Below are positions 34,653-49,972 of a stretch of DNA of 64,000 nt, piece by piece. The position numbers were made by a program, and so were the translations under genes. The number at the start of each line of letters is the position of its first letter. The first letter of the stretch is position 1. Source of the DNA: Bacillota bacterium (lineage in GTDB: Bacteria > Bacillota > Clostridia > Saccharofermentanales > DTU023); the NCBI GenBank assembly GCA_023389255.1, contig JAEWER010000028.1:20282-84281 (forward strand). The letters are read 5' to 3'. Under the pieces are notes generated by a model. The model did not search any database. It saw only the letters and a program-made list of their open reading frames with translations, and had not been told where the DNA came from.

Positions 34653-34718
34653 AGCTTGGTTCTTGTGATTCTGCTTTGTAGCTACGGTGAAAACTGACTC
34701 AGAGAAAGCGGAACTCCC

Positions 34719-34732
34719 TGCAAGCGTTTGCA
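34719..34732. promoter_or_regulatory. LacI-family/cre-like operator TGCAAGCGTTTGCA
   Basis: Near-perfect 14-bp palindrome matching TGNAANCGNWNNCA, in the 380-nt non-coding leader of the inositol locus. Confidence 0.5.
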
Positions 34733-34896
34733 ACATATTTGCCTTTTTATCCTCTGAAAAGTATGTTCTTTTATTTCCTATAACTGGTATATTAGGAATG
34801 CTTATAGTGTCCTAGTAGCGGTAATTTATAAGTTTGACACACAATCCCTTGTGCAATTTACACAAAAATAGATGGGCTATTCTAGTCATATGTTCA

Positions 34897-34925
34897 TTGT
34901 TTGCTACACATTATCTATCTATAAT
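34897..34925 (+). promoter_or_regulatory. Putative sigma-A promoter of the inositol transporter/iolDG unit (TTGTTT-N17-TATAAT)
   Basis: Consensus -10 TATAAT at 34920-34925 and -35 TTGTTT at 34897-34902. Operator-like sites lie immediately downstream. Confidence 0.45.
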
Positions 34926-34963
34926 TGCAACAGGTTGCAAGCGTATTAGCTCATACAAGCAAT

Positions 34964-34977
34964 TGCAAACGCTTGAA
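34964..34977. promoter_or_regulatory. Second operator-like half-palindrome TGCAAACGCTTGAA
   Basis: Shares the TGCAAxCGxTTGxA pattern with 34719-34732 and 40520-40533. Located between the predicted -10 and the RBS of the ABC ATPase gene. Confidence 0.45.
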
Positions 34978-35033
34978 ACGCGTAGAGTAAAGACTGATTA
35001 TCCATTAAGGATATCGGGGAAGAGGAGTTAGCG

Positions 35034-36530
35034 ATGAGTGAATATGTTGTCGAATTGCGAAACATCACTAAGCGTTTCCCCGGTGTGTTAGCGCTCAAGG
35101 ATATGCACATTGCCATTAAGCCAGGTACTATACATGGTTTAATCGGTGAAAATGGTGCGGGTAAATCTACCTTGATTAAAACACTGACCGGCGTGCACAA
35201 GCCAGATACAGGCGAAATAATCGTCAATGGTGAAGTACACAAATTTAAGGACCCCAATGACTCAGCCAAAGCAGGTATTGCCTGTGTGTATCAGGAGCTG
35301 AACATTGAAAAACTACTCAGTATTACCGATAACATTTTTATTAACAAGTGGTTGCGAAAAGGTCCATTGCTTGATTACAAGACCATGCATGAAAAAGCAG
35401 CTGAGGTGATGAAAGATCTAGGTCAGACTGTTGATACGCATAAGGCTGCTGGTACTTTCGGCATGGGTGTCCAACAGATGATCGAAATTGCCAAGGCAAC
35501 CATGATCGATGCCAAGTTGATTATTATGGACGAGCCTACCTCATCTTTAGGAGAAAAAGAGGTAGAACAGTTGATGGCAACTTGTCGTTATCTCAAGAGT
35601 AAGGGTATTGCTATTCTCTTTGTTTCTCACAAACTGGAAGAGTTGTTTGAATTGTGCGATTTGGTCACAGTTATGCGTGATGGTGAACATATCATCACAG
35701 AAGACATCGAAAATATGGATCACGACAAGCTGATCACAGCCATGGTTGGTCGTTCTTTAGAAAATCAATTCCCTAAAGAGTTTGGCACCAGAGGCGAAGT
35801 TGCCTTAGAAGCCAAAGATTTAACTATTGGTGGTGTATTAGACAAGGTCAGCTTTAAAGCCTATAAGGGCGAAATCCTAGGTTTTGCTGGTTTGGTTGGC
35901 GCAGGTCGTACAGAAACGATGCGTGCTATCTTCGGTGCCGATCATCTAGATAGTGGTGAAGTTTATATTCACGGCGAAAAGGTTAGCATTAAAAACCCGG
36001 GTCATGCGGTCAAAAAAGGTATCGCTTTCTTAACGGAAGACCGCAAAGGACAGGGATTGGTTTTACAACAAAGTATTAGGACCAATCTGATCTTAGCTAA
36101 TCTCAAAGGTTTTTCTAACGGACCATTCTTAAACGAGAAGCGGATTGAACAATCTGGTGAGGATAATGTTGCCTCCCTACGTATTAAAACCCCATCGCTT
36201 GACGAGATTGTAGGACAACTTTCTGGTGGCAACCAACAAAAAGTTGTTATCGGTAAGTGGGTTAATACGGATGCACGTATCTTCATTTTTGATGAACCTA
36301 CACGTGGTATTGATGTAGGCGCCAAAATCGAAGTGTACAACGTTATGAACAGCCTGGTTAAAGCTGGACATTGCGTAATTATGATCTCCTCTGAGATGCC
36401 TGAAATCTTAGGTATGAGCGATCGTGTTGTGGTTATGCGTAAAGGTCGCGTCATGGCTACGATCAATCGTGGAGATAAAGAATTTAACCAAGAAGATATT
36501 ATGAGCGCTGCCTGGGGAGGTAAAAAATAA
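35034..36530 (+). CDS. Sugar/inositol ABC transporter ATP-binding protein (CUT2, duplicated ATPase)
   Basis: Two ABC cassettes: Walker A GENGAGKST, and LSGGNQQKV in the second half. RbsA/MglA-like, 498 aa. Confidence 0.9.
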   Translation: MSEYVVELRNITKRFPGVLALKDMHIAIKPGTIHGLIGENGAGKSTLIKTLTGVHKPDTGEIIVNGEVHKFKDPNDSAKAGIACVYQELNIEKLLSITDNIFINKWLRKGPLLDYKTMHEKAAEVMKDLGQTVDTHKAAGTFGMGVQQMIEIAKATMIDAKLIIMDEPTSSLGEKEVEQLMATCRYLKSKGIAILFVSHKLEELFELCDLVTVMRDGEHIITEDIENMDHDKLITAMVGRSLENQFPKEFGTRGEVALEAKDLTIGGVLDKVSFKAYKGEILGFAGLVGAGRTETMRAIFGADHLDSGEVYIHGEKVSIKNPGHAVKKGIAFLTEDRKGQGLVLQQSIRTNLILANLKGFSNGPFLNEKRIEQSGEDNVASLRIKTPSLDEIVGQLSGGNQQKVVIGKWVNTDARIFIFDEPTRGIDVGAKIEVYNVMNSLVKAGHCVIMISSEMPEILGMSDRVVVMRKGRVMATINRGDKEFNQEDIMSAAWGGKK

Positions 36531-37549
36531 TGTTAAAGCAAAATAAATTCTCCAAAATTTTATCGGAGTTGGGAACTCTGCTCGCCCTGATAATTCTCTG
36601 TGTGATTTTAACTATCGCTACTCCTAACTTTCTCAAAGTTGATAACTTGATGAACATCTTAAAGCAGACATCAGTTAATGCTTTGATTTCAGCTGGTATG
36701 TTAGTTTGCTTGATTACTGGTGGTATCGACTTATCAGTAGGTGCTAACGCCATTACTTGTACATGTTTAATGGGTTTGATGTTAACTAAAGGTATTGATA
36801 ATGCAGTAATCATGATTATCGCTGTTCTGGTTTTAGGTACTTTAATTGGTTTCATCAACGGTACCTTGTTAACTCGCTTACATTTACCCCACCCCTTCGT
36901 CTCGACACTGGGTATGAAAAATGTTCTCTCTGGTGTAGCTCTGTTACTGGTCAACTCTAAGATGGTATCAGGCTTCGGTAAAGATATTATGTGGTTGGGT
37001 TCACATTCAGCAGGTAGCTTCACCTATGGTGCTGGCAAACAATTCCCTGGTGTGCCTGTATCGTTCATCTTAGTAATCATTCTCTTCGCCATTATGGGTG
37101 TGTTCTTGAGCAAAACTGCTCTGGGTAGATCAATTTACTGTGTAGGTGGTAACGCTGAAGCAGCTAGACTTTCTGGTATTAATTCCGCTAACGTCTTAAC
37201 TTTCTGCTATGCCTTATCTGGTTTCTTCTGTGCTGTTGCTGGTATCGTTATCGTTGGTCGTACGGGTATCTGTAATGGTGCAAACGCAACTCAGCCCTAC
37301 GAAACTGATGCTATCGCAGCTTGTATCATCGGTGGTGCATCATTCCTAGGTGGTAAAGGAACTATGAGAGGTACCATGATTGGTGCTCTGATTATCTCCG
37401 TTATCAGAAATGGTTTGACCTTGCTTTCCGCCTCATCTGCCATTCAGTTTGTAGTTTTAGGTTTGGTTATCATCTTAGCGGTTCTAATCGATATTACACG
37501 TCAACAATTCGCTGTTAAAGCTCGTCGTCTAGCGATGGCTAGTAAGTAA
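36530..37549 (+). CDS. Sugar/inositol ABC transporter permease (RbsC/BPD_transp_2 family)
   Basis: 10-TM RbsC-like protein (..TGGIDLSVGA.., ..GGNAEAARLSGI..). ATGA-type overlap with the ATPase gene. Confidence 0.9.
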   Translation: MLKQNKFSKILSELGTLLALIILCVILTIATPNFLKVDNLMNILKQTSVNALISAGMLVCLITGGIDLSVGANAITCTCLMGLMLTKGIDNAVIMIIAVLVLGTLIGFINGTLLTRLHLPHPFVSTLGMKNVLSGVALLLVNSKMVSGFGKDIMWLGSHSAGSFTYGAGKQFPGVPVSFILVIILFAIMGVFLSKTALGRSIYCVGGNAEAARLSGINSANVLTFCYALSGFFCAVAGIVIVGRTGICNGANATQPYETDAIAACIIGGASFLGGKGTMRGTMIGALIISVIRNGLTLLSASSAIQFVVLGLVIILAVLIDITRQQFAVKARRLAMASK

Positions 37550-37576: not shown

Positions 37577-39442
37577 ATGGATTTTCCGAGAATTCGTTTA
37601 ACAATGGCACAAGCCTTAGTCAAATTCATGGATAACCAATATGTTGAATTTGATGGCAAGGAACAAAAGTTTGTGCACGGTGTCTTCGGCATCTTTGGCC
37701 ATGGTTGCGTAACTGGTGTCGGCGAGGCGCTGGAATACATGGATCACGATCTGAAGTTTTATCAAGGTAAAAATGAGCAATCTATGGGTTTAGCTGCCAT
37801 GGCGTACGCTAAACAATTAGATCGTAGAGCCATCATTCCCTGCGTTTCTTCGATTGGTCCTGGTGCCACCAACATGGTAACTGCAGCGGCGTGTGCTACT
37901 GCTAATCGCATCCCGTTGTTGGTATTACCGGGAGACACCTTTGCAACACGTCAACCTGATCCAGTATTACAACAAGCTGAAATTTTCAGCAGTATCGGCA
38001 CCACAGTTAATGATTCATTTCGTGCAGTGTGTCGATATTTTGATCGCATCAATCGTCCTGAGCAATTGATGAGTGCACTGTTGCAAGCTTTCCGTGTATT
38101 GACCGATCCAGCGGAAACAGGAGCTGTCTGCATTGCGATGCCACAAGATGTTGAGGCAGAAGCTTATGATTATCCAGCTTATTTCTTTGAAAAGCGTGTT
38201 TGGCATATGGATCGTCGTCCTTTGGCGGTACCACAAGGTCAACGCTTAGAAGAGCTGATCAAGCAGAGCAAACGTCCACTGATGATTGTTGGTGGTGGTG
38301 TTCGCTACTCAGATGCTGGTGCAGAAGTTGTGAAACTAGCTGAACATTGCCAGATTCCTTTTGCCGAAACACAAGCTGGCAAAGGATTGATTCGTTGGGA
38401 TCATCCGCTAAATATGGGCGGTATCGGTGTAACTGGTACTGAATGCGCAAATTTAGTAGCCCAAAAAGCAGATTTGGTTATTGGCATTGGTACACGTTTC
38501 TCCGATTTCACAACTGCTTCAAAATGGTTATTTAAGAATCCAGAATGCAAATTCATTTCTATCAATGTATGTGGATTTGATTTAGTCAAACTAAATGCTC
38601 ATGGTATTCAAGCTGATGCCAAAGAAGCCTTGCAAGGAATGTATGAATTCTTAAATGACTATCAATCAGCTTATGAAGAAGATGAACTGAAGAACTTAAA
38701 AGAAAATTGGATCAAAGAAGCTAATCGTTTATTTGCTCAGCCTGGTCAAAAATTTAATCAGGTCGCAGCTGTGGGCATTATCAATCAGTTCATGGCAGAT
38801 GAAGATATCGTTTGCTGTGCAGCTGGTAGCTTGCCGGGTGATTTACAGCGTCTGTGGCGTCCAGGCAACAGTCATTCCTACCATGTTGAATATGGCTATT
38901 CCAACATGGGATATGATTTGAATGCTGGTCTGGGTATTAAGCTGGCAGCACCAAATTCTGAAGTGTTTACCATGGTGGGAGATGGTGGCTATTTAATGTT
39001 GAATGCAGAAGTCCATACCATGGTGCAGGAGCGAGCAAAGGTCAATATCATGTTGTTTGACAACATGGGGTGGGGCTGTATTGAAAGCCTGCAAAACAGT
39101 CATGGCGGTAATAGCTACGGTACTTGCTTCCAAGTTAGAAGAGAGGGAGAAGCAGTGCCTAAGGGAGATTTGATTCCTGTTGATTTCGCTATGAATGCTA
39201 GATCGTTAGGGTGTGCAGCCTATACCTGCCATAACGCTGAAGAACTCAAGCAAGCGTTGGTGGACAGCAAGAAAATAACAGATAAACCTGTGCTATTTGA
39301 TATTAAGGTTGACCATGCTTCTATGAGTAAAGGCTATGAATCATGGTGGCGTGTAGGTGTAGCAGAAGTTTCAGAGTCAGAAGAGGTGCGTAAGGCATAC
39401 GCTGACAATGTTGCTCATATTAAACAAACTCGGGATTATTAA
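37577..39442 (+). CDS. iolD: 3D-(3,5/4)-trihydroxycyclohexane-1,2-dione acylhydrolase (ThDP enzyme)
   Basis: IRLTMAQALVKFMDNQYVEFDGKE.KFV.GVFGIFGHG N-terminus and overall length are typical of IolD. GDGGYLM ThDP motif. Confidence 0.9.
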   Translation: MDFPRIRLTMAQALVKFMDNQYVEFDGKEQKFVHGVFGIFGHGCVTGVGEALEYMDHDLKFYQGKNEQSMGLAAMAYAKQLDRRAIIPCVSSIGPGATNMVTAAACATANRIPLLVLPGDTFATRQPDPVLQQAEIFSSIGTTVNDSFRAVCRYFDRINRPEQLMSALLQAFRVLTDPAETGAVCIAMPQDVEAEAYDYPAYFFEKRVWHMDRRPLAVPQGQRLEELIKQSKRPLMIVGGGVRYSDAGAEVVKLAEHCQIPFAETQAGKGLIRWDHPLNMGGIGVTGTECANLVAQKADLVIGIGTRFSDFTTASKWLFKNPECKFISINVCGFDLVKLNAHGIQADAKEALQGMYEFLNDYQSAYEEDELKNLKENWIKEANRLFAQPGQKFNQVAAVGIINQFMADEDIVCCAAGSLPGDLQRLWRPGNSHSYHVEYGYSNMGYDLNAGLGIKLAAPNSEVFTMVGDGGYLMLNAEVHTMVQERAKVNIMLFDNMGWGCIESLQNSHGGNSYGTCFQVRREGEAVPKGDLIPVDFAMNARSLGCAAYTCHNAEELKQALVDSKKITDKPVLFDIKVDHASMSKGYESWWRVGVAEVSESEEVRKAYADNVAHIKQTRDY

Positions 39443-39458
39443 TCCAAAGGAGGATAAA

Positions 39459-40466
39459 GTGATTAAATTAGGTGTTATCGGTACAGGCCGCATCGGTAAA
39501 TTACATGTTGAAAACATCAATAAATTTGTGCCGGATGCAAAGGTCATTGCTGTAGCTGATGTGATGATCGATTACAGCCGTGAATGGGCAAAAGAGCAAG
39601 GCATTGAACATGTCTACCAGGATTACAATGAACTCTTGCAAAATCCTGAAGTAGACGCCGTGGTCGTAGCTACATCCACAGATACCCATGCAACTGTGGC
39701 TATTGCTGCCTGCAAAGCTGGTAAAGACATTTTCTGTGAGAAACCAGTTGATACTTCAGTAGCTAAAATTAAAGAGGTTTTGGCTGCAGTTAAAGAAGCT
39801 GGTGTCAAATTCCAAGTTGGCTTTAACCGTAGATTTGACCACAATTTCCGTCGAGTACGTGAATTTGTAGAAAATGGCACAGTGGGTGAACCGCATCTAT
39901 TGCGTGTTACCAGTCGTGATCCAGCCCCCCCTTCAGTTGAATATATCGCTTCTTCAGGTGGTTTATTCCTAGATATGATGATTCACGACTTTGATATGGT
40001 GCGTTATCTGAGTGGAAGTGAAGTCAAAAAAGTTACTGCGTTTGGTGCAAATCTGATTGATCCAGCAATTGGCAAAGCAGGCGATATCGATACAGCTACT
40101 GTGACTTTGGAACTAGAAAATGGTGCACTAGCTGTTATTGATAACAGTCGTCAAGCGGTTTATGGCTATGACCAAAGAGTGGAAGTATTTGGCTCCAAAG
40201 GTGTAGCGCAAGCGTTTAATGACAAGCCTTCTAATGTGGAGGTTTCAACGGCTGATGCAGTAACCACCGATAAAATCCGCTATTTCTTCTTAGATCGCTA
40301 TACGGGTGCCTTTGTTGATCAATTTGTCAGCTTTATCAAGGCGCTGAAAGGCGAAGCTGAAGTTCCGGTTGATGCTCTAGATGGTTTGCGTGCAGTAGAG
40401 GTTGCTTTAGCAGCAACTGAGTCACTGCGTTCAGGTAAAACCATCACCATGGAATACGATCAATAA
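39459..40466 (+). CDS. iolG: myo-Inositol 2-dehydrogenase (Gfo/Idh/MocA)
   Basis: IKLGVIGTGRIGKLH Rossmann fold, EKP motif (FCEKPV) and GFNRRFD. GTG start at 39459 with AAAGGAGG RBS; the track ORF start overlaps the end of iolD. Confidence 0.85.
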   Translation: MIKLGVIGTGRIGKLHVENINKFVPDAKVIAVADVMIDYSREWAKEQGIEHVYQDYNELLQNPEVDAVVVATSTDTHATVAIAACKAGKDIFCEKPVDTSVAKIKEVLAAVKEAGVKFQVGFNRRFDHNFRRVREFVENGTVGEPHLLRVTSRDPAPPSVEYIASSGGLFLDMMIHDFDMVRYLSGSEVKKVTAFGANLIDPAIGKAGDIDTATVTLELENGALAVIDNSRQAVYGYDQRVEVFGSKGVAQAFNDKPSNVEVSTADAVTTDKIRYFFLDRYTGAFVDQFVSFIKALKGEAEVPVDALDGLRAVEVALAATESLRSGKTITMEYDQ

Positions 40467-40551: not shown

Positions 40552-41448
40552 ATGTTAGCAAAAGACAAAGTACATTTAGGAATTGCTCCGATCGGTTGGA
40601 CAAATGATGATATGCCCGATCTCGGCAAAGAAAACACATTTGAACAATGTGTAAGTGAAATGGCGTTGGCAGGATTTACAGGTTCAGAGGTTGGCAATAA
40701 ATATCCCAAAGATCCAGCTGTCTTAAAGCCTATGCTTGATATTCGTGGTATGAGAATAGCCAACCAATGGTTTTCATCGTTGCTGACATCAGAGCCTTAT
40801 GAAGTGACTATTGAGAACTTCAAAAAACAACTTGAATTTCTTAAAGCTATGGGCGCTAAGGTAATCGGTGCTTCAGAGCAAGGAAATTCTATTCAAGGTA
40901 AACAAATTCCTATTTTAGGTGAGCAAAAACCTGTCTTTACTGATGAGCAATGGCAACTCATTGCTAAAGGTATGAACGAAATGGGCAAAATTGCTCGTGA
41001 TATGGGCATGACTCTAACGTACCATCACCATATGGGCACAGGCATTCAAACCATGGCAGAGGTAGACAAATTTTTGGAGCTGACTGATCCGGAATTAGTT
41101 TTCCTGCTGTATGATACAGGGCATTTTGCTTTCTCAGGTGAAGATCATGTGGTTGCCGTTGAACGCTACATGCCGCGAATTAAGCACGTGCACTTGAAAG
41201 ACATTCGTAGTTCAGTCATCGAGCAAGTGAGAAAAGAAAATAAGAGCTTCTTAGAGGCTGTGCGTATGGGTGCATTTACAGTACCTGGTGATGGCGATTT
41301 GGACTTCAAGCCTGTGTTTGAGGTGCTAGAAAAGAATAATTACAGTGGTTGGATGATTGTAGAAGCAGAGCAAGATCCAGCCAAAGCGAATCCTTTTGAA
41401 TACGCAGTAAAAGCGCGCAAGTTCATCCGCGAAAATACTGGTTTATAA
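40552..41448 (+). CDS. iolE: Inosose (2-keto-myo-inositol) dehydratase
   Basis: LGIAPIGWTNDDMPDLG...YHHHMGTGIQT...FTVPGDGDLDFKPVF...VEAEQDPAKANP is nearly collinear with Bacillus IolE. Confidence 0.9.
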   Translation: MLAKDKVHLGIAPIGWTNDDMPDLGKENTFEQCVSEMALAGFTGSEVGNKYPKDPAVLKPMLDIRGMRIANQWFSSLLTSEPYEVTIENFKKQLEFLKAMGAKVIGASEQGNSIQGKQIPILGEQKPVFTDEQWQLIAKGMNEMGKIARDMGMTLTYHHHMGTGIQTMAEVDKFLELTDPELVFLLYDTGHFAFSGEDHVVAVERYMPRIKHVHLKDIRSSVIEQVRKENKSFLEAVRMGAFTVPGDGDLDFKPVFEVLEKNNYSGWMIVEAEQDPAKANPFEYAVKARKFIRENTGL

Positions 41449-41459
41449 CACAGGTCATT

Positions 41460-42527
41460 ATGGTCACGATTAAAGACATTGCCGAAAAAGCTGGTGTTTC
41501 TTACTCAACAGTTTCTCGTTCGTTGAACGATTATGCAGGAACTAATGATGAAACTAAGAAACGCATTAAAGAGTTAGCTAAGCAAATGGGCTACGAGCCT
41601 AACGATATCGCACGTTCTTTGGTGACCAGAAGATCAAATACTGTTGGTTTTGTTTTACCCGATATTGCGAATCCTTTCTTTGCTGATATTTTGTCTGCCA
41701 TCAATGAGATAGCAGAAATGCATGGATTTAACACTCTGGTTTGTAGTACGGGATGGAATGCTGATAAAGAATTACAAGCCCTAAAAATGCTCTCGTCTAA
41801 GCGGGTGGATGGCATAGTTTTATACCCCGCCCGCTTGATCGAGGACGATCGCTTAGAAGTGATCAAACCTCCGGTCATAGTGATGGGCAGACCGTATGAT
41901 CCAGAAAAGAATAGGATCAAATGTGTGGAAGTAGATAATGATAAAGGCGCACGTTTAGCTATAGATCATTTGGTGGCCAGTGGCTACAGCAGAATAGCTT
42001 ATTTAGGTGGACCGAATCATTCTCTTTCCAACATTATTCGCAAACAAGCTTTTGCAGATGAGCTAATCAAAAAGCAGTTCGCTTGTAACGAAGAGTGGAT
42101 TAGCGACGGAGAATACACCATTGATAGTGGTTGTGAGCGTGCTAGAACGTTGCTTAAGCAGACTTCTAAAAACGCAAAACAACTACCAGATGCGCTACTC
42201 TGTGCCAACGATATGATCGCTTTGGGAGCGATGCAAGCAGTTGAAGAACTAGGGTTTAAGTTAGGCAAAGATATCGCAGTGATGGGTTTTGATGATGTTC
42301 AATATGCTTCTTTACCTCAGATACAGCTCTCTACTATCAGCATCCCACGTTTTGAATTAGGACGTATCTCTATGCAGATGCTGATAGAGGCGATAGAACA
42401 GCAACCAATAGATAAAGCAGGACGTACCAACAATTCTAAGTACAATCTTGCGTTACAACAGGAAGTCAAAGGTTATAGAGTTTTGCTCTATCCAGAATTA
42501 ATCGTACGTAAAACAACAGTAAAGTAG
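41460..42527 (+). CDS. LacI-family transcriptional regulator
   Basis: N-terminal HTH (VTIKDIAEKAGVSYSTVSRSLN) and a periplasmic-binding-protein-like sugar-binding core. Confidence 0.9.
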   Translation: MVTIKDIAEKAGVSYSTVSRSLNDYAGTNDETKKRIKELAKQMGYEPNDIARSLVTRRSNTVGFVLPDIANPFFADILSAINEIAEMHGFNTLVCSTGWNADKELQALKMLSSKRVDGIVLYPARLIEDDRLEVIKPPVIVMGRPYDPEKNRIKCVEVDNDKGARLAIDHLVASGYSRIAYLGGPNHSLSNIIRKQAFADELIKKQFACNEEWISDGEYTIDSGCERARTLLKQTSKNAKQLPDALLCANDMIALGAMQAVEELGFKLGKDIAVMGFDDVQYASLPQIQLSTISIPRFELGRISMQMLIEAIEQQPIDKAGRTNNSKYNLALQQEVKGYRVLLYPELIVRKTTVK

Positions 42528-42536
42528 GTATTTAGA

Positions 42537-43799
42537 GTGCAATACACAGTAGCCATAGGAGAAAGAAAGCAGTCTGTCGAAATTCCTGAAGAATTAGTTT
42601 TGGCAGTTCTGGAGCAAAATGAGGTTCAGGTTGAACTCACTGGAGCTGATGCTGTAAGCCAAGCTATCAACAACCCTATAGGTAGTCCTAAACTGGAAGA
42701 AATCATCAAACCGGGTGAGAAGATTGCCATCATTACTTCAGATTTGACTAGACCGATACCTTCATACATCGTGTTGCCACCATTACTTGAGCGATTACGC
42801 AAAATTGGTTGTGCTAATGAAGACATAGTTATTGTGTTTGCTTTAGGATCACACCGTAAGCAGACTGAAGCAGAGATGCGTAAATTGGTAGGGGACCAAG
42901 TTTACGATAATTATCGCTGTGAGGATGGAGATATCGATGATGTGGTGCACATGGGCACTACAAGTAGTGGCACACCAGTTGATGTTTGTCGCACGGTTGC
43001 CGAAGCTGATCGCAGAATTTGTTTGGGCAATATTGAATACCACTACTTTGCTGGTTACAGTGGAGGTGCAAAGGCGATTATGCCTGGTGTTTCCACCAGA
43101 GCTGCGATTCAAGCTAATCACAGCATGATGGTTAGAGATACTGCAACTACTGGTAATGTTGATCACAACCCTGTACGTGATGATTTAGAAGAAGCGATCA
43201 ACTATTGTCCTATAGATTTTATTGTCAATGTGGTTCTCGATGAACACAAAAAAATTATTCATGCCGTGGCTGGTCACTTTATCACTGCTCATCGTAGCGG
43301 TTGTAAGTTCCTGGATAGCCTTTATCTCAAACCTATTGCTAAACGTGCAGATATTGTTATCTGTTCACAAGGTGGCAAACCGAAAGATTTGAATTTGTAT
43401 CAAACACAAAAGGCACTGGACAATGCTAAAAATGCGGTGCGTGACGGAGGCATCATAATTTTGGTGGGTTCTTGTCAGGAAGGATTAGGCGAAGGAGTTT
43501 TTGAACGTTGGATGTTGGAACATGATGAATCGTCCAGCATGATCAGTGATATTCAAAAACACTTTGAGCTAGGAGGGCATAAAGCCGCCGCGATTGCGAT
43601 GGTATTACAACGTGCTCGTATTTTCTTAGTTTCAGATATGGAGCATGAATTTGTCAGACGAATTTTTATGACTCCGTTCAACACAGTCCAAGAAGCCTAT
43701 GATCAGGCGAAAAAAGAGCTAGGAGAGCAAAGTGAAGTCATTATCATGCCGTATGGAGGTTCGACATTACCGCGCTGCCTAGCTGACAAAGATAAATAA
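42537..43799 (+). CDS. LarA-family nickel-pincer-nucleotide-dependent 2-hydroxyacid racemase/epimerase homolog
   Basis: DUF2088/LarA fold, 420 aa. Retains ALGSHR (His108-equivalent), EYHYFAGYSGGAK (His174 and cofactor-tethering Lys184 equivalents) and QANH (His200-equivalent). Confidence 0.85.
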   Translation: MQYTVAIGERKQSVEIPEELVLAVLEQNEVQVELTGADAVSQAINNPIGSPKLEEIIKPGEKIAIITSDLTRPIPSYIVLPPLLERLRKIGCANEDIVIVFALGSHRKQTEAEMRKLVGDQVYDNYRCEDGDIDDVVHMGTTSSGTPVDVCRTVAEADRRICLGNIEYHYFAGYSGGAKAIMPGVSTRAAIQANHSMMVRDTATTGNVDHNPVRDDLEEAINYCPIDFIVNVVLDEHKKIIHAVAGHFITAHRSGCKFLDSLYLKPIAKRADIVICSQGGKPKDLNLYQTQKALDNAKNAVRDGGIIILVGSCQEGLGEGVFERWMLEHDESSSMISDIQKHFELGGHKAAAIAMVLQRARIFLVSDMEHEFVRRIFMTPFNTVQEAYDQAKKELGEQSEVIIMPYGGSTLPRCLADKDK

Positions 43800-43833: not shown

Positions 43834-44868
43834 ATGTCAAAGGTAAAAGTAGGTGTAGCAGGTTATGGTGTCATTGGCCAAAGATTGGCTGATGGCGTTG
43901 CTCGTCAACAAGATATGGAATTAGTTGGTATTGCAGATATTGCTCCCACTTTATCCATTCGCGCTTTACATGAAAAAGGCATGCCTTATGATCTATATTT
44001 GGTCGATGGCGCTAAAAAAGAGGATTTTGAGAAATACGGCATCCCCACTAAAGGAAGTTTCGAAGATTTGGTCAACCAAGTTGATATCATGCTAGATTCT
44101 TCACCTGGTGGTGTTGGTATCAAAAATAAAGAGTTGTATGAACGCCTAGGCAAGAAAGCCATCTTCCAAGGTGGCGAATGCAATGAGGTAGCAGATGTCT
44201 TCTTCCACGGCTATGCTAACTTTGAGAAAGGTTTAGATCAAAAATATCTGAAGCTGACTTCTTGTAATACCACTGGTCTGATTCGTTCAGTGGATTGCTT
44301 AGATCGTGCTTATGGTATTAGCAATGTAGCTATCACCATTGTTCGACGTGTAGCCGATCCTGGCGATTACCACCGTGGATTAACCAATGCTTTGCGCATT
44401 GACAAGGCTCCCAGCCATCAAGCAGTAGACTTGATGACTATCATGCCTCATGTAGAAGCAACAGGTATCTTAATCCATACACCTGTCACCCATGGTCATA
44501 TCATTACAGTCGTAGCTAAAGGTAAAGAAAAAATTACCAAAGAGATGGCTTTAGAGGCTTTTGCTAAACACGATCGTATTCGTTTGGTTTCAATCGATGA
44601 AGGCTTCTTAGGTAACGCATCTCTATTCCGCTATGCTCGTGATTTAGGTAATCCTCGTGGCGATATGTATGAAATCGCTATCTGGAAAGATTCAATTGTT
44701 GAAACAGGCGATGGTATCATGTACGCCATCAATATTCCTCAAGAAGCAGTTACTATTCCTGAAACTATGGACGCAATTCGCGCAGCCACTGGTATGCAAA
44801 ATTCCCGTGAAGAAGGAACTGCTAAAACCAATGAATATTTAGGTTTAGGAAAATGGAAAAACAAATAA
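43834..44868 (+). CDS. Type II (archaeal-type) glyceraldehyde-3-phosphate dehydrogenase family protein
   Basis: Collinear with archaeal GAPDH: VGVAGYGVIGQRLAD, active-site SCNTTGL, IVRRVADP. 344 aa. Strong AGGAGG RBS. Confidence 0.85.
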   Translation: MSKVKVGVAGYGVIGQRLADGVARQQDMELVGIADIAPTLSIRALHEKGMPYDLYLVDGAKKEDFEKYGIPTKGSFEDLVNQVDIMLDSSPGGVGIKNKELYERLGKKAIFQGGECNEVADVFFHGYANFEKGLDQKYLKLTSCNTTGLIRSVDCLDRAYGISNVAITIVRRVADPGDYHRGLTNALRIDKAPSHQAVDLMTIMPHVEATGILIHTPVTHGHIITVVAKGKEKITKEMALEAFAKHDRIRLVSIDEGFLGNASLFRYARDLGNPRGDMYEIAIWKDSIVETGDGIMYAINIPQEAVTIPETMDAIRAATGMQNSREEGTAKTNEYLGLGKWKNK

Positions 44869-46088
44869 AGTCTTATAAAGAATTTTCTTATGCTGGGCGC
44901 AGAGTTCTTCTGCGTCTAGATATTAATTCTCCTTTAGATCCTAAGACCAAGCAAATTACCGATACTACTCGTATCGATAAAAGTTTGTCCACAGTTAATT
45001 ACCTGCTGGAACAAGGAGCTAAAGTAGCTATCATTGCGCACCAAGGCGATACTTTGGACTATCAGAATTTATATCCATTAGCCGAGCACGCCAAGATTCT
45101 AAGCGAAAAGACTGGTCGCAAAGTAGACTATATCGATGATGTATGTGGACCAGCTGCCATTGCTAAGATCAAGGAACTCTCAGATGGTGAGGCGATTATT
45201 TTAGGCAATTTGCGCTACTTAGCCGAAGAAATTTCTACTTTTGAAACAGTGGTTAAGTTGACTCCGCAAGAGATGACTAAAACTTGGCTAATTCGTAGCT
45301 TAAGCGAGCACTTTGATTACTATGTCAATGATGCCTTTTCCGCTGCGCATCGTGCTTGTCCCTCGATGGTTGCTTTCCAAGAAGTGTTACCATCGGCTGC
45401 TGGTGAATTATTCTTTGCTGAATATTCAGCGCTCAACAACGTGCTCAAACAGCCACAACATCCATCGGTATTTGTGCTCGGGGGCGCCAAAATTTCTGAT
45501 GCCTTTGGCATGATGGAACAGGTTCTAGTTAACGGTACTGCCGATAAAATTTTAACAACTGGCGTTACTGGCGTAGTGTTTCTGTTAGCTCAAGGTAAGA
45601 GCATTGGTAGTAAGTATGAGCAGTGGTTGCGAGATCGTAAGTTGTTGGACTTTGTTGAACCGGCAAAACGTTATTTGGAAGAATATGCCGGTAAAATCGA
45701 GGCTCCAGTCGACTTAGCGTACGCACAAAATGATGAAAGAAAAGAGTTAGATATTGCCCAACTACCCATGGACGATGCAATGTTCCTGGATATAGGCAGT
45801 GCTACAATAGAAAAGTATCAAGAGATTATTCAATCGGCGGCAACATTGTTTGTCAATGGCCCTGCTGGTGTCTACGAAGATCCGTTATTTGTTAAAGGTA
45901 CAGAAGCTCTCTGGCAAGCTATCGCAAAAGCGCCAGGACACTCTGTTATCGGTGGCGGAGATACCGTACAAGCTGCAGGCAAGTTTATTGATCTGACTGA
46001 CATAGGTTATGTCTGTACAGCGGGCGGTGCCATGGTCAGATTTATGACAGGCAAAAAACTTCCTCTGATTGAAGCGATGGAGAAATAA
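44853..46088 (+). CDS. Archaeal-type phosphoglycerate kinase family protein with an altered substrate motif
   Basis: RLDINSPLDPKTKQITDTTRI...GAKVAIIAHQGD...GNLRY..EE and the C-terminal GGGDT pattern. 411 aa. Overlaps the GAPDH-like gene by 16 nt. Confidence 0.8.
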   Translation: MEKQIKSYKEFSYAGRRVLLRLDINSPLDPKTKQITDTTRIDKSLSTVNYLLEQGAKVAIIAHQGDTLDYQNLYPLAEHAKILSEKTGRKVDYIDDVCGPAAIAKIKELSDGEAIILGNLRYLAEEISTFETVVKLTPQEMTKTWLIRSLSEHFDYYVNDAFSAAHRACPSMVAFQEVLPSAAGELFFAEYSALNNVLKQPQHPSVFVLGGAKISDAFGMMEQVLVNGTADKILTTGVTGVVFLLAQGKSIGSKYEQWLRDRKLLDFVEPAKRYLEEYAGKIEAPVDLAYAQNDERKELDIAQLPMDDAMFLDIGSATIEKYQEIIQSAATLFVNGPAGVYEDPLFVKGTEALWQAIAKAPGHSVIGGGDTVQAAGKFIDLTDIGYVCTAGGAMVRFMTGKKLPLIEAMEK

Positions 46089-46939
46089 TGATGGATAAAT
46101 CACAGAAATTTTCATTAGAAAAATTTGCTGCTGAGATTCGTCTGCACACCACTAAAGAAGTTGTAAAACGTGGCTTTGGCCACTTAGGCGGATCTCTTTC
46201 AGTAGTTGATGCTTTGGCTGTTTTATACGGCAAGCAACTAAAATGCGATCCCAAGAATCCTAAAGATCCTGATCGTGATTATTTAGTGATGAGCAAAGGT
46301 CATGCGGGTCCCGCAGTTTATGCAACACTGGCTCTCAAAGGCTTTTTCCCCATTGAAGAGCTGGAAACTTTGAACCAACCAGGCACAAATTTGCCCAGCC
46401 ATTGTGACCGCAATAAGACAATCGGTGTAGATGCTACCACTGGTTCCTTAGGACAAGGTTCATCTCAAGCCTGTGGTATCGCTTTAGGCAACAAATTAGC
46501 TGGCAGACAAAATTATACCTATCTGTTCACCGGTGATGGTGAGAGTAACGAAGGACAAATTTGGGAAGCCGCCTTGTTTGCCAGTCAACAAAAACTGGAT
46601 CATCTGATTTGGTTTGTTGATTACAACCGTAAGCAACTTGATGGTGCTACCGATGAAGTCATGAGTATGGGTTCCATTGTTGATAAGTTTAAAGCTTTTG
46701 GATTTCATGCTGTGGAAGTAGATGGACACGATGTTTGCGCAATTGATGATGCCATCGAGCAAGCTAAACAAGTTAAGGATCAACCTTCTTGCATCGTCTT
46801 GAACACCATTAAGGGTAAGGGTTTAGACGAACTAGAGAAGATGGCATTGAATCACCATATCGCCATCGATGAAGCTTTCGGCAAATCATCAGTGGCATTC
46901 TTTGAGGAAGCTTTAGCCACAATGAAGGAGGAAGCCTAA
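46088..46939 (+). CDS. Transketolase, N-terminal (PP-domain) subunit
   Basis: SKGHAGPAVYA and ThDP motif GDGESNEGQIWEA...DYNRKQLDG. 283 aa, split-type. Confidence 0.9.
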   Translation: MMDKSQKFSLEKFAAEIRLHTTKEVVKRGFGHLGGSLSVVDALAVLYGKQLKCDPKNPKDPDRDYLVMSKGHAGPAVYATLALKGFFPIEELETLNQPGTNLPSHCDRNKTIGVDATTGSLGQGSSQACGIALGNKLAGRQNYTYLFTGDGESNEGQIWEAALFASQQKLDHLIWFVDYNRKQLDGATDEVMSMGSIVDKFKAFGFHAVEVDGHDVCAIDDAIEQAKQVKDQPSCIVLNTIKGKGLDELEKMALNHHIAIDEAFGKSSVAFFEEALATMKEEA

Positions 46940-47913
46940 TGTTTAAAGTTATCTACGATGGTACTGCCGAGCAGAAGGCACACAAGAATGTATACGCTGA
47001 TACAATTGAGCAATTAGCCAGTGAAGATAAAGATGTAATTTATCTGGATGCTGATTTGATGAATTCAGCTGGTACTTATAAATTCTGGAAAGAGCATCCC
47101 GACCAAGCCATTAACTGTGGTATTGCGGAAGCAAATATGATGGGCGTAGCTGCTGGCTTATCTTTAGTTGGCAGAAAACCATATGTACATACTTTTGGAC
47201 CTTTTGCGTCACGCAGATGTTATGATCAAACTTTTTTAAGTGTTGGTTATTCCAAAAACAGTGTGCGTATTTTTGGTTCTGATCCTGGTGTGGCTGCAGC
47301 TTTCAATGGTGGTACGCATATGCCTTTTGAAGATATGGCGCTGATGCGTGCAATTCCAGAGTCACATGTTTTTGATTTGGCAGATGGCGTGCAATTTGCT
47401 TGGACTTTACGTGCAGTCAAAGACTTATCTGGCGTAGTCTACATGCGTAGTACCCGCAAGAATTACAAAAAGATCTATGCAGAGGATTCAACTTTCGAGA
47501 TTGGTAAAGGCAATGTCCTCCGTGAAGGTACCGATTTAACAATCATTGCTTGTGGCTTGATGGTTGGTGAAGCGATGGAAGCAGCTGAGATGCTAGAAAA
47601 GGAAGGTATTTCAGCACGTGTTGTTGATATGTTTACAGTAAAACCCTTAGATGCAGAATTAGTTTGCGAATCTGCCAAGAAAACGGGTTGTATTGTTACA
47701 GCTGAAAATCACAATATTATCGGCGGTCTAGGCGAAGCTGTTGCTTCTGCTTTGGCTGGTGGTTGCAAAGCATGTCGTGGTGTAGCCTTTAAGAAGCATG
47801 GTGTTACCGATCGTTTTGGTGAAGTTGGACCTGTTGACTACCTGCAAGAAGTTTATGGCTTAACGGCAAAAGCGTTAGTAGAAACATGTAAACAAGCATT
47901 AGCTGAAAAGTAG
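46939..47913 (+). CDS. Transketolase, C-terminal (Pyr + C-terminal domain) subunit
   Basis: DADLMNS...GIAEANMMGVAAGL...GGTHMPFEDMALMRAIP. 324 aa. ATG overlaps the upstream stop (TAATG). Confidence 0.9.
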   Translation: MFKVIYDGTAEQKAHKNVYADTIEQLASEDKDVIYLDADLMNSAGTYKFWKEHPDQAINCGIAEANMMGVAAGLSLVGRKPYVHTFGPFASRRCYDQTFLSVGYSKNSVRIFGSDPGVAAAFNGGTHMPFEDMALMRAIPESHVFDLADGVQFAWTLRAVKDLSGVVYMRSTRKNYKKIYAEDSTFEIGKGNVLREGTDLTIIACGLMVGEAMEAAEMLEKEGISARVVDMFTVKPLDAELVCESAKKTGCIVTAENHNIIGGLGEAVASALAGGCKACRGVAFKKHGVTDRFGEVGPVDYLQEVYGLTAKALVETCKQALAEK

Positions 47914-47914
47914 T

Positions 47915-47943
47915 GCCGAGCGAGCTTCGCTCGGCTTTTTTTG
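47915..47943 (+). terminator. Strong rho-independent terminator after the transketolase genes
   Basis: GCCGAGCG-agctt-CGCTCGGC followed by T8. Confidence 0.85.
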
Positions 47944-47951
47944 AGGGAATT

Positions 47952-48752
47952 ATGTATATCGAAAAAGAGCTACATCCTGGCTATAACGAATATTTAAGTT
48001 TGGATGTTGAAAACGGATATGGTAGCTGGATGGATGTCGGTTTGCTCATCTTGCAAGCTGGTGACAGCTACACTTTTGCTGAAACAGAAAAAGAAGTTTC
48101 TTGGATTTTAATGCAAGGCAAGGCTGTTGCTGAATTCGATGGACAAAATGTAGAGATGGATCGTCCCAATCCCTTTGCATACAATCCATGGTGTTTATTG
48201 ATGTCTAAGAATCATAGCTGCACTGTAACTGCAATATCAGACTGTGAATTCTACGTACAAAAATCCTATAACGACAAGGAATATGCAACGCATCTTTATA
48301 CTGATCAGGAAACTGATACTTGGCATCGTGGAGATAAAGGTGAATTAGGAGACTGCATTCGTCGTGATGTCAGAACTTGTTATGACTATGAGACTAGACC
48401 CGACTCCAACATGGTCTTGGGTGAAGTGGTAAATTTACCAGGCAAATGGTCAAGTTATCCGCCCCACAATCATCCACAACCAGAAGTATATTTCTATTTC
48501 TTTGAAAAGGAGCAAGGTTTTGGTGCAGGGTGGGCAGATAATCGTCCATATGAATTGCATCATCATGGGTGTTTAGTGATTACTGATGAAGTTACACACT
48601 CACAAGTTATGGCGCCAGGTTATGCTTGTTGTTATACCTGGGGTATTCGTCATCTACCAGGTAATCCTTGGGAAAAAACAAGAATAGATGATCCTAAACA
48701 CGAATGGCTTTTAGCAGAAAATCCTCAATACTGGGATCAACCTAAACAATAG
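47952..48752 (+). CDS. iolB: 5-Deoxy-glucuronate isomerase
   Basis: Cupin with the GKWSSYPPHNH signature and a ..DDPKHEWLL C-terminus, as in Bacillus IolB. I moved the start to the ATG at 47952 (GAGGGA RBS) because the track ORF start lies inside the terminator. Confidence 0.85.
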   Translation: MYIEKELHPGYNEYLSLDVENGYGSWMDVGLLILQAGDSYTFAETEKEVSWILMQGKAVAEFDGQNVEMDRPNPFAYNPWCLLMSKNHSCTVTAISDCEFYVQKSYNDKEYATHLYTDQETDTWHRGDKGELGDCIRRDVRTCYDYETRPDSNMVLGEVVNLPGKWSSYPPHNHPQPEVYFYFFEKEQGFGAGWADNRPYELHHHGCLVITDEVTHSQVMAPGYACCYTWGIRHLPGNPWEKTRIDDPKHEWLLAENPQYWDQPKQ

Positions 48753-48784: not shown

Positions 48785-49972
48785 ATGGCAGAAAAAATAA
48801 ATTACGCTGAGATGTCATTAGCAAAACATCAAGAGTGGAAGGGAAAGATTGAAGTTATCGCTACTTGTCCTGTTTCCAGCAAACACGAATTAGCTTTAGC
48901 ATACACGCCAGGCGTTGCTGAACCTTGTTTGCAGATTCAGAAGGATGTTGATAAATCCTACGAGTTAACACGCAGACACAACTTAGCCTTGGTAGTTACA
49001 GATGGTAGTGCTGTTTTAGGTCTTGGAGATATTGGGCCTGAGGCAGGCATGCCTGTTATGGAAGGTAAATGTGCTCTGTTTAAAGCATTTGGTGATGTAG
49101 ATGCTTTCCCCTTATGCGTTAAATCACAAGACGTAGATACAATAGTAGAAACCATCTATCAAATTTCGGGCAGTTTTGCTGGCGTGAATTTAGAAGATAT
49201 TGCAGCTCCGCGTTGTTTTGAAATTGAAGAGCGCCTAAAAGCTAAATGCGATATCCCCATTTTCCACGATGATCAACATGGTACGGCTGTTGTAACTTTG
49301 GCTGGCTTAATCAATGCCTTGAAGATCGTAGGCAAAAAGATGGATGAGATCAAAGTCGTTATGAATGGCGCAGGTGCAGCTTCGATTGCTATTAGCAAAT
49401 TGTTGTTATCAGCCGGTGTAAAAGATCTTATTTTGTGCGATCGCAAAGGGGTAATTTATAAAGGTCGTACCGAGGGCATGAATAAGTATAAAGAGCAGAT
49501 GGCAGAGATTAGTAATCCACGTCAAATCAAAGGCTCTTTAGCTGATGCTCTAGTGGGTGCTGATGTGTTTGTTGGCGTATCAGCTGCTGGCGCAGTTTCT
49601 CAAGATATGGTTCGTTCAATGAATAAAGATGCTATCGTTTTCGCTTGTGCCAACCCCATTCCAGAAATCTATCCAGACGAAGCTAAAGAAGCTGGTGCCG
49701 CTGTTACAGCAACAGGCAGATCAGACTTCGCTAACCAAATCAATAATGTTTTAGCATTCCCAGGTATTTTCCGCGGAGCATTTGATGTGCGTGCTAAGGA
49801 CATTAACCAAGAAATGAATGTGGCAGCAGCTCATGCTATCGCCTCACTAGTTGGGGATGATGAATTAAATCCTGAGCACATCATGCCAGATGCTTTTGAT
49901 CCAAGAGTTAAAGAAGTAGTGGCTAAAGCGGTAGCAGAGGCAGCTATTAAGACAGGCGTGAATCGTATCTAA
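48785..49972 (+). CDS. NAD(P)-dependent malic enzyme (short type)
   Basis: LAYTPGVAEPC, VVTDGSAVLGLGDIG, FAGVNLEDI..P.CF, FHDDQHGTA and GAGAA dinucleotide motifs. Confidence 0.9.
   Translation: MAEKINYAEMSLAKHQEWKGKIEVIATCPVSSKHELALAYTPGVAEPCLQIQKDVDKSYELTRRHNLALVVTDGSAVLGLGDIGPEAGMPVMEGKCALFKAFGDVDAFPLCVKSQDVDTIVETIYQISGSFAGVNLEDIAAPRCFEIEERLKAKCDIPIFHDDQHGTAVVTLAGLINALKIVGKKMDEIKVVMNGAGAASIAISKLLLSAGVKDLILCDRKGVIYKGRTEGMNKYKEQMAEISNPRQIKGSLADALVGADVFVGVSAAGAVSQDMVRSMNKDAIVFACANPIPEIYPDEAKEAGAAVTATGRSDFANQINNVLAFPGIFRGAFDVRAKDINQEMNVAAAHAIASLVGDDELNPEHIMPDAFDPRVKEVVAKAVAEAAIKTGVNRI

Follow-up and report, generated by a model that had tools for sequence, protein, structure and literature searches.

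A predicted LarAH6-family malate racemase as the probable stereochemical adaptor of a variant myo-inositol pathway in Clostridia

The 64,000-nucleotide stretch of contig JAEWER010000028.1 analysed here (the window), from a Bacillota bacterium of the class Clostridia, encodes a protein of the LarA superfamily, which is predicted to be a nickel-pincer-nucleotide (NPN)-dependent malate racemase (MAR) of the LarAH6/Mar2 family. Its gene is part of a one-directional cluster of closely packed or overlapping genes that also encodes enzymes of myo-inositol breakdown, a glyceraldehyde-3-phosphate dehydrogenase (GAPDH) homolog of the archaeal type (type II, GAPDH-II), a phosphoglycerate kinase (PGK)-like protein, a split transketolase (genes tkN and tkC) and a malic enzyme. 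The order of the genes (ABC transporter, iolD, iolG, iolE, lacI, MAR, GAPDH, PGK-like, split transketolase, iolB-like, malic enzyme) and the features of the cluster are as follows.

35034-36530, + strand: sugar ABC transporter ATPase (profile match)
36530-37549, + strand: sugar ABC transporter permease (profile match)
37577..39442, + strand: iolD (TIGR04377, 884 bits, cut-off 715)
39408..40466, + strand: iolG, inositol 2-dehydrogenase (TIGR04380, 458 bits, cut-off 355); the gene call in the identical contig L001 starts at 39459
40552..41448, + strand: iolE, inosose dehydratase (TIGR04379, 421 bits, cut-off 290)
41460..42527, + strand: LacI-family repressor gene, directly 5' of the racemase gene (Pfam LacI, Peripla_BP_1/3)
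42537..43799, + strand: predicted racemase of the LarAH6/Mar2 family, 420 amino acids (NF052593, 577.3 bits; Lar_N and LarA_C)
43834..44868, + strand: archaeal-type (type II) phosphorylating GAPDH homolog (PRK04207, 401 bits, cut-off 185)
44853..46088, + strand: PGK-like kinase (Pfam PGK, 359 bits)
46088..46939, + strand: N-terminal subunit of the split transketolase (Pfam Transketolase_N, NCBIfam transketolase fragments)
46939..47913, + strand: C-terminal subunit of the split transketolase (Pfam Transket_pyr, Transketolase_C)
47915..47935, + strand: perfect 9-bp hairpin with 7 G-C pairs, followed by T7 (terminator scan), in the 38-nt gap between the tkC stop and the iolB-like start
47952..48752, + strand: IolB/KduI-family isomerase, a divergent 5-deoxy-glucuronate isomerase (TIGR04378 iolB, 85 bits, below the cut-off of 205)
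48785..49972, + strand: NAD(P)-malic enzyme, 395 amino acids (NCBIfam malic-enzyme subfamily; Pfam malic, Malic_M)

The sequence-only reading had placed the racemase within an inositol locus, and this is borne out by iolD, iolG and iolE directly upstream, all of which pass their NCBIfam equivalog cut-offs, and by the iolB-like gene downstream. The open reading frame (ORF) of the latter extends upstream to 47913, and the gene called in the identical contig L001 has a Pfam KduI match. A classical malic enzyme, the type named in that reading, lies in the same cluster as the racemase; ribosomal protein genes and obg are located downstream of it. None of the window ORFs scanned matched the IolC, IolJ or IolA families. 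The lacI gene has the same position in the closest relative (L004) as in the window.

The racemase ORF begins with a GTG start codon 9 nt 3' of the lacI stop, with an AGG approximately 8 nt before the GTG. Two Pfam domains cover most of the protein, Lar_N (PF09861) over residues 8–204 with an E-value of 4.5e-71 and LarA_C (PF21113) over residues 269–409 with an E-value of 2.3e-23, and both matches are far beyond chance. The catalytic motifs named earlier from the translation, ALGSHRK (H106), IEYHYFAGYSGGAK (H169, K179) and AIQANHS (H195), are all present, together with the motifs TSDLTRP (D69, R72) and LYQTQK (K292). The cofactor-binding residues of LarA, namely R75, K184 (the covalent tether) and H200 (the nickel ligand), correspond to R72, K179 and H195, and the catalytic LarA residues D72, H108, H174 and K298 correspond to D69, H106, H169 and K292. 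Thus, with both Pfam domains present and the residues aligned to Mar2, the protein retains the full catalytic and cofactor-binding set of the superfamily, as had been noted. In an alignment of 20 homologs (62–100% identity) D69, R72, H106, H169, K179, H195, Q291, K292, H348 and K349 are invariant. The exact protein has matches on contigs from metagenomes and metagenome-assembled genomes (MAGs) only, and its nearest GTDB species representative is 68% identical.

Among four LarA-type models of NCBIfam compared, only the equivalog model of the nickel-dependent malate racemase of the LarAH6 family (NF052593) is passed, with 577 bits against a cut-off of 500. The score remains under the cut-off for the LarAH5 malate racemase (406 bits, cut-off 462), for LarAH10 (392 bits, cut-off 540) and for the lactate racemase LarA (NF033504, 361 bits, cut-off 460). 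The best match in the PDB is Mar2 from Thermoanaerobacterium thermosaccharolyticum (PDB code 6D6Z, E-value 1.6e-114), with 44% identity over 402 aligned positions, and the numbering of the racemase is that of Mar2 minus 2. The published Mar2 residues R74, K181 and H197, which bind the cofactor, and Q293 and K351, which line the pocket (PMC7583248), align with R72, K179, H195, Q291 and K349. The rule proposed for malate racemases is a His or Gln followed by a Lys at the positions of LarA W358 and T359, with two variable loop positions after the second catalytic histidine (PMC11770544); the racemase shows G347-H348-K349, and Q291 precedes the catalytic K292. The assignment to the malate-racemase type agrees with the earlier expectation, as the LarAH6 cut-off is passed, that for lactate racemase is failed and the published signature residues are present. 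Although homologs are labelled ‘nickel-dependent lactate racemase’ in the automatic annotation of NCBI and JGI, the protein is in all probability a regular member of the malate-racemase family, because it passes the LarAH6 model and its signature residues are invariant in the 20 homologs.

The genes larB, larC and larE are absent from the window, as previously stated: none of its ORFs matches them in NCBIfam or Pfam, and tblastn with LarE, LarB and LarC from the one related locus that carries them (L159) gives no match in it. The sole SGGxDS PP-loop motif of the window lies inside tilS. The approximately 9 kb downstream of the window contain a V-type ATPase operon and an alanine racemase gene, but no lar genes. 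The lar set of L159, a locus from a high-GC metagenomic lineage, was found by a motif scan of all fetched DNA and comprises larE, larB and a His-rich larC, the last cut by the contig end (L159:4-2354, − strand). The three genes, all confirmed by NCBIfam, directly adjoin the gap-pgk-MAR genes that start at L159:2811, to which they are divergent. When the three proteins were used as tblastn queries against the window and 170 loci (2.36 Mb), they matched L159 alone, so that adjacent lar cofactor genes occur in one of about 160 related loci. Likewise, none of the recurrent unlabelled clusters of neighboring proteins of LarB-, LarC- or LarE-like length in the 80 loci described below is a Lar protein; they were annotated as a KduD-like short-chain dehydrogenase/reductase, an ECF ATPase, an IolO-like epimerase, a hydroxypyruvate-isomerase-like protein, an arginine biosynthesis protein and a TRAP permease. 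Distant cofactor genes are the rule for this racemase clade rather than an oddity, and the distance of the lar genes is uninformative, because about 159 of the 160 related loci are likewise without them nearby.

The neighborhood of the racemase is conserved. A racemase-alignment scan of one genome per GTDB species yielded more than 584 relatives, of which the best 80 loci, with racemases of 60–68% identity, were taken; their ORFs were called locally and compared with the window proteins by blastp, and the counts refer to the 45 loci of at least 15 kb. GAPDH-II and the PGK-like protein are both present in 34 of these 45 loci, the malic enzyme in 27, the split transketolase in 26 and iolD in 18, and 43 loci encode at least one of GAPDH-II, PGK-like protein and malic enzyme. 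The gene order varies among Clostridia, Christensenellaceae, Treponema and Desulfovibrionaceae, for example gap-pgk-MAR-me-tkN-tkC, tkN-tkC-gap-pgk-MAR or MAR-gap-pgk-tkN-tkC. The carriers belong to taxa from Lachnospiraceae, Oscillospiraceae and Christensenellaceae to Treponema and Desulfovibrionaceae. Cultured strains with the whole operon include Clostridium tanneri A1-XYC3, Clostridium sp. BSD9I1 and Lachnospiraceae bacterium LCP25S3_G4, and the operon is also present in complete genomes such as Christensenellaceae OY762278.1 and Treponema sp. HNW CP144459. The association is also seen in the reverse direction: with the GAPDH homolog as the query against metagenome contigs, 27 loci that extend at least 5 kb to each side of this gene were obtained, all 27 of which encode the PGK-like protein and 23 the MAR. 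Dozens of species show the racemase linked, in varying gene order, to iol genes and to those for the archaeal-type GAPDH, PGK, transketolase and malic enzyme.

Three classes of context can be distinguished. The window belongs to the transketolase and iol type (class A). In the Acetobacterium type (class B), the genes gap-pgk-me-MAR follow those for a metallo-beta-lactamase-fold protein, a 3-hydroxyacyl-CoA-dehydrogenase-family protein and an E1-alpha/E1-beta/E2/E3 complex. In class C the MAR and malic enzyme genes stand alone, in some loci together with a TRAP transporter. The presence of gap-pgk-me-MAR behind another feeder set in class B speaks for a common intermediate on which all four genes act. 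The class B loci (L005-L010, L081 and L082) come from Acetobacterium spp., Eubacteriaceae bacterium ES2, a Desulfovibrionaceae MAG and Clostridium magnum, and their E1/E2/E3 complex is acetoin-dehydrogenase-like.

The GAPDH homolog has its nearest PDB entry in the enzyme from Pyrococcus horikoshii (PDB code 2CZC) and keeps the catalytic SCNTT motif, while the PSHHGPD of the archaeal enzyme invariably reads PSHQAVD in the homologs of the module. The PGK-like protein, encoded by a gene that shares 16 nt with the GAPDH gene, is nearest to P. horikoshii PGK (PDB code 2CUN). It has HQGDT in place of HQGKP in 2CUN, and approximately 110 PGK-like homologs from the module show HQGD[TS] or HQGSD, lacking the basic residue of the Pyrococcus motif. 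We take this position of PGK to be part of the basic patch that binds the 3-phosphate, and the substitution suggests an altered substrate-phosphate site in the module proteins. They fall into two subtypes, with approximately 60–69% and 40–46% identity to the window copy. The changed motifs of both proteins would fit a neofunctionalized pair. The archaeal-type GAPDH and PGK are spread over many bacterial phyla, and the GAPDH is unusually conserved. This distribution of archaeal-type genes, together with the 70–82% identity of the GAPDH homologs across loci from different phyla, suggests horizontal spread of the module.

Two further features of the cluster were observed. Termination or attenuation at the hairpin downstream of tkC may divide the cluster internally. 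In the promoter and terminator scan of the region the number of sites does not exceed that expected from shuffling, and for this reason no transcription units are claimed from it. The ABC transporter (34652-37549) has no substrate-binding-protein gene beside it, and none was seen elsewhere in the window; in the closest relative, a substrate-binding-protein gene is located upstream on the opposite strand.

The following pathway is proposed for the cluster. IolG, IolE, IolD and the IolB-like isomerase would convert myo-inositol to 2-deoxy-5-keto-D-gluconate. The split transketolase is predicted to remove the C2 ketol unit (C6-C5) from this compound, leaving (R)-malate semialdehyde, OHC-CH(OH)-CH2-COO−, which the archaeal-type GAPDH homolog would oxidize to D-malyl phosphate. 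The PGK-like kinase, acting as a D-malyl-phosphate:ADP phosphotransferase, would then yield D-malate and ATP, the racemase would convert D-malate to L-malate, and the malic enzyme of the cluster would produce pyruvate and CO2. In such a variant inositol pathway, transketolase, GAPDH, PGK-like protein, racemase and malic enzyme would take the place of IolC, IolJ and IolA.

The stereochemistry of this scheme provides the reason for a racemase. At its ketose end, 2-deoxy-5-keto-D-gluconate is D-threo (3S,4R), the configuration needed by both fructose-1,6-bisphosphate (FBP)-type aldolases such as IolJ and transketolase, and therefore the aldehyde left behind is (R) and its oxidation gives (R)-malate, that is, D-malate. 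D-malate had been predicted earlier from stereochemical bookkeeping of the proposed pathway, and an independent derivation, in which the transketolase cleavage leaves (R)-malate semialdehyde, comes to the same enantiomer. (R)-Malate semialdehyde equals D-glyceraldehyde 3-phosphate in shape and charge pattern, with a carboxylate replacing the phosphate ester, which makes GAPDH and PGK the natural enzymes for its conversion to D-malate with a gain of one ATP. Malic enzymes of the malic/Malic_M type act on L-malate, and a racemase would be needed because the inherited stereocenter gives the D-enantiomer. Malate is also the sole intermediate of the pathway with a hydroxyl beside the carboxylate, and compounds of this kind are the substrates of LarA enzymes.

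By analogy with LarA, K179 would tether the cofactor, H195 would ligate the nickel ion, and H106 and H169 would alternate as acid and base. The C2 hydride would be held on the cofactor and given back to either face of oxaloacetate. The cofactor itself is presumably built by larB, larC and larE located elsewhere in the genome. Conversion of pathway-derived D-malate for the adjacent malic enzyme is a reasonably likely role for the racemase, and the combined reading, a LarAH6/Mar2 malate racemase as the stereochemical adaptor of a variant inositol pathway, appears likely. A broader proposal is favored only slightly over its negation: the racemase may catalyze the penultimate reaction of a lower branch of myo-inositol breakdown that is undescribed, depends on transketolase, yields ATP and is widespread in anaerobic Clostridia, Christensenellaceae and Treponema. 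In this branch, repurposed, horizontally acquired archaeal-type GAPDH and PGK would oxidize (R)-malate semialdehyde to D-malate with substrate-level phosphorylation, and the portable cassette GAPDH-II/PGK-like/MAR/malic enzyme may be a ‘D-malate semialdehyde to pyruvate’ module with at least one other feeder, that of the Acetobacterium type.

The other explanations differ in what they leave of this picture. If the public labels of the homologs were taken at face value, the protein would be a lactate racemase that balances D- and L-lactate and has no connection with the inositol genes; the catalytic machinery, being common to the whole superfamily, would allow it. This is very improbable given the failed LarA cut-off and the passed malate-racemase model. 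Lactate racemases carry F, F, W and E/Q at the signature positions (PMC11770544), while the protein has Y, F, H and K, and Q291 stands in the place of LarA V297. Moreover, neither a lactate permease nor a lactate dehydrogenase is found nearby, and the recurrent neighbor is a malic enzyme. The enzyme could instead act as a racemase or epimerase on a relative of malate, for example tartrate, 2-hydroxyglutarate or another 2-hydroxy dicarboxylate or sugar acid, in which case the product of the GAPDH/PGK pair would also differ. The characterized MARs promiscuously epimerize tartrate, the high KM of Mar1 led its authors to doubt malate as the native substrate (PMC7583248), and both the 44% identity to Mar2 and the presence of F171 in the loop in place of K173 leave room for such a change. 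This explanation is nevertheless unlikely. The signatures of HGR (Y, F, H/Q, T) and GntE (E, V, A, H) (PMC11770544) are not matched because of K349 at the last position, and the malic enzyme accompanies the racemase in the majority of the loci counted. Malate is, in addition, the sole 2-hydroxy acid of a plausible pathway here, as 5-deoxyglucuronate and 2-deoxy-5-ketogluconate have a CH2 group beside the carboxylate.

It may also be argued that the racemase and malic enzyme constitute a self-contained pair for D/L-malate utilization, adjacent to the inositol genes by chance, and that the GAPDH and PGK are plain glycolytic enzymes. Many loci carry MAR and malic enzyme alone (class C), some with a TRAP transporter, and some gap-pgk pairs stand alone as well. 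However, the association of the racemase with the GAPDH/PGK pair is reciprocal in the two surveys and outlasts the shuffling of gene order across phyla, and in the PGK-like protein the basic residue conserved at the phosphate site for 3-phosphoglycerate is missing. The transketolase of the scheme uses up glyceraldehyde 3-phosphate and yields none, so that a dedicated glycolytic pair is unneeded, and apart from the GAPDH homolog the operon contains no aldehyde dehydrogenase, with iolC, iolJ and iolA likewise absent; a chance arrangement of this kind is quite unlikely. There is, finally, the absence of larB, larC and larE from the window and the sequence downstream of it, which would be expected if the organism were unable to make the nickel-pincer cofactor and the racemase were an inactive remnant. 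With the ORF full length and set in an operon, with all catalytic and cofactor-binding residues intact and invariant among homologs, and with nearly all related loci also devoid of cofactor genes nearby, there is very little likelihood of this.

Several points weigh against the role of stereochemical adaptor. We know of no precedent for a transketolase acting on a carboxylate-ended ketose or for a GAPDH/PGK pair acting on a carboxylate analog. Mar2, the nearest characterized enzyme, is just 44% identical to the racemase, and the loop after H169 reads Y170-F171, as compared with Y172-K173 in Mar2, F171 being invariant in the 20 homologs; these are the loop positions called variable among MARs (PMC11770544). 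One locus (L146, OWPA01000512.1) possesses a complete lacI-gap-pgk-tkN-tkC-iolB-iolD-iolE-iolG operon, flanked by rpsB, MgtC and GH38 genes, with no MAR or malic enzyme within 10 kb. Its MAR and malic enzyme are either elsewhere in the genome or D-malate is handled in another way. Three gap-pgk pairs (L095, L107 and L147) are free-standing; L095 and L107 carry HI0933-like flavoproteins. A D-malate dehydrogenase was sought in the GAPDH-II loci that are without a racemase and was not found. The 80 surveyed loci are the closest relatives, at 60–68% identity, and their frequencies apply to this clade and not to LarAH6 as a whole.

The enzyme itself is, on the basis of its profile match and residues, a new member of the known LarAH6 malate-racemase family. 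A full-text literature search for the pathway role of the racemase found no paper that describes it, although most subscription journals are outside the coverage of the search and earlier publication is possible. Malate racemases are reported to constitute the largest group of the LarA superfamily, and their role in vivo was left open by their discoverers (PMC7583248, PMC11770544). The conserved neighborhood offers a concrete one, the resolution of the ‘wrong’ malate enantiomer left by the stereochemistry inherited from the substrate. If true, it would be the first defined physiological role for the largest group of LarA homologs, within a form of the inositol pathway in which ATP is made at a stage where the canonical route consumes it, and it would add a new substrate class for transketolase and a neofunctionalized GAPDH/PGK pair. 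As many of the carriers are gut or rumen anaerobes, the pathway would have a bearing on the fermentation of dietary inositol and phytate-derived carbon.

The racemase is similar to Mar2 (PDB codes 6D6Z and 7S91; Desguin et al. 2020, PMC7583248) in its two-domain fold family, in the NPN-binding Arg, Lys and His residues, in the catalytic Asp, His, His and Lys residues and in the Gln-Lys pair of helix 11 and the His-Lys pair of helix 14. Both belong to the same NCBIfam equivalog and both have a malic enzyme as a neighbor. Apart from the moderate identity and the changed loop, the difference lies in the location of the window gene inside an iol/transketolase/GAPDH-II/PGK operon. The neighborhoods of group 6 (LarAH6) in Table S1 of the same work list only malic enzyme, in 15% of cases, and no GAPDH, PGK or transketolase (PMC7583248). 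LarA from Lactiplantibacillus plantarum (PDB code 5HUQ) shares with the racemase the superfamily and presumably the proton-coupled hydride transfer with a tethered NPN, and the equivalents of H108, H174, K184 and H200 are kept. Unlike LarA, the racemase is located outside any larB/larC/larE operon, scores below the LarA cut-off and has polar or basic pocket residues where LarA has two Phe residues and a Trp.

The upper part of the proposed pathway is the same as that of Bacillus subtilis iolABCDEFGHIJ, in which IolG, IolE, IolD and IolB lead to 2-deoxy-5-keto-D-gluconate. The window ORFs scanned, however, include no IolC kinase, no IolJ aldolase and no IolA malonate-semialdehyde dehydrogenase, and the cluster has the transketolase, GAPDH-II, PGK-like protein, racemase and malic enzyme instead. 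The predicted lower branch would gain one ATP, while the canonical branch spends one. A route from malic semialdehyde via D-malate to pyruvate and CO2 was demonstrated in the aerobic carnitine pathway of Acinetobacter baumannii (PMC11353897), where D-malate also arises from a stereocenter inherited from the substrate. There, a non-phosphorylating dehydrogenase is followed by a decarboxylating D-malate dehydrogenase. In the pathway proposed for the window, in contrast, energy would be conserved by the phosphorylating GAPDH/PGK pair, and the stereochemistry would be settled by the racemase together with an L-specific malic enzyme.

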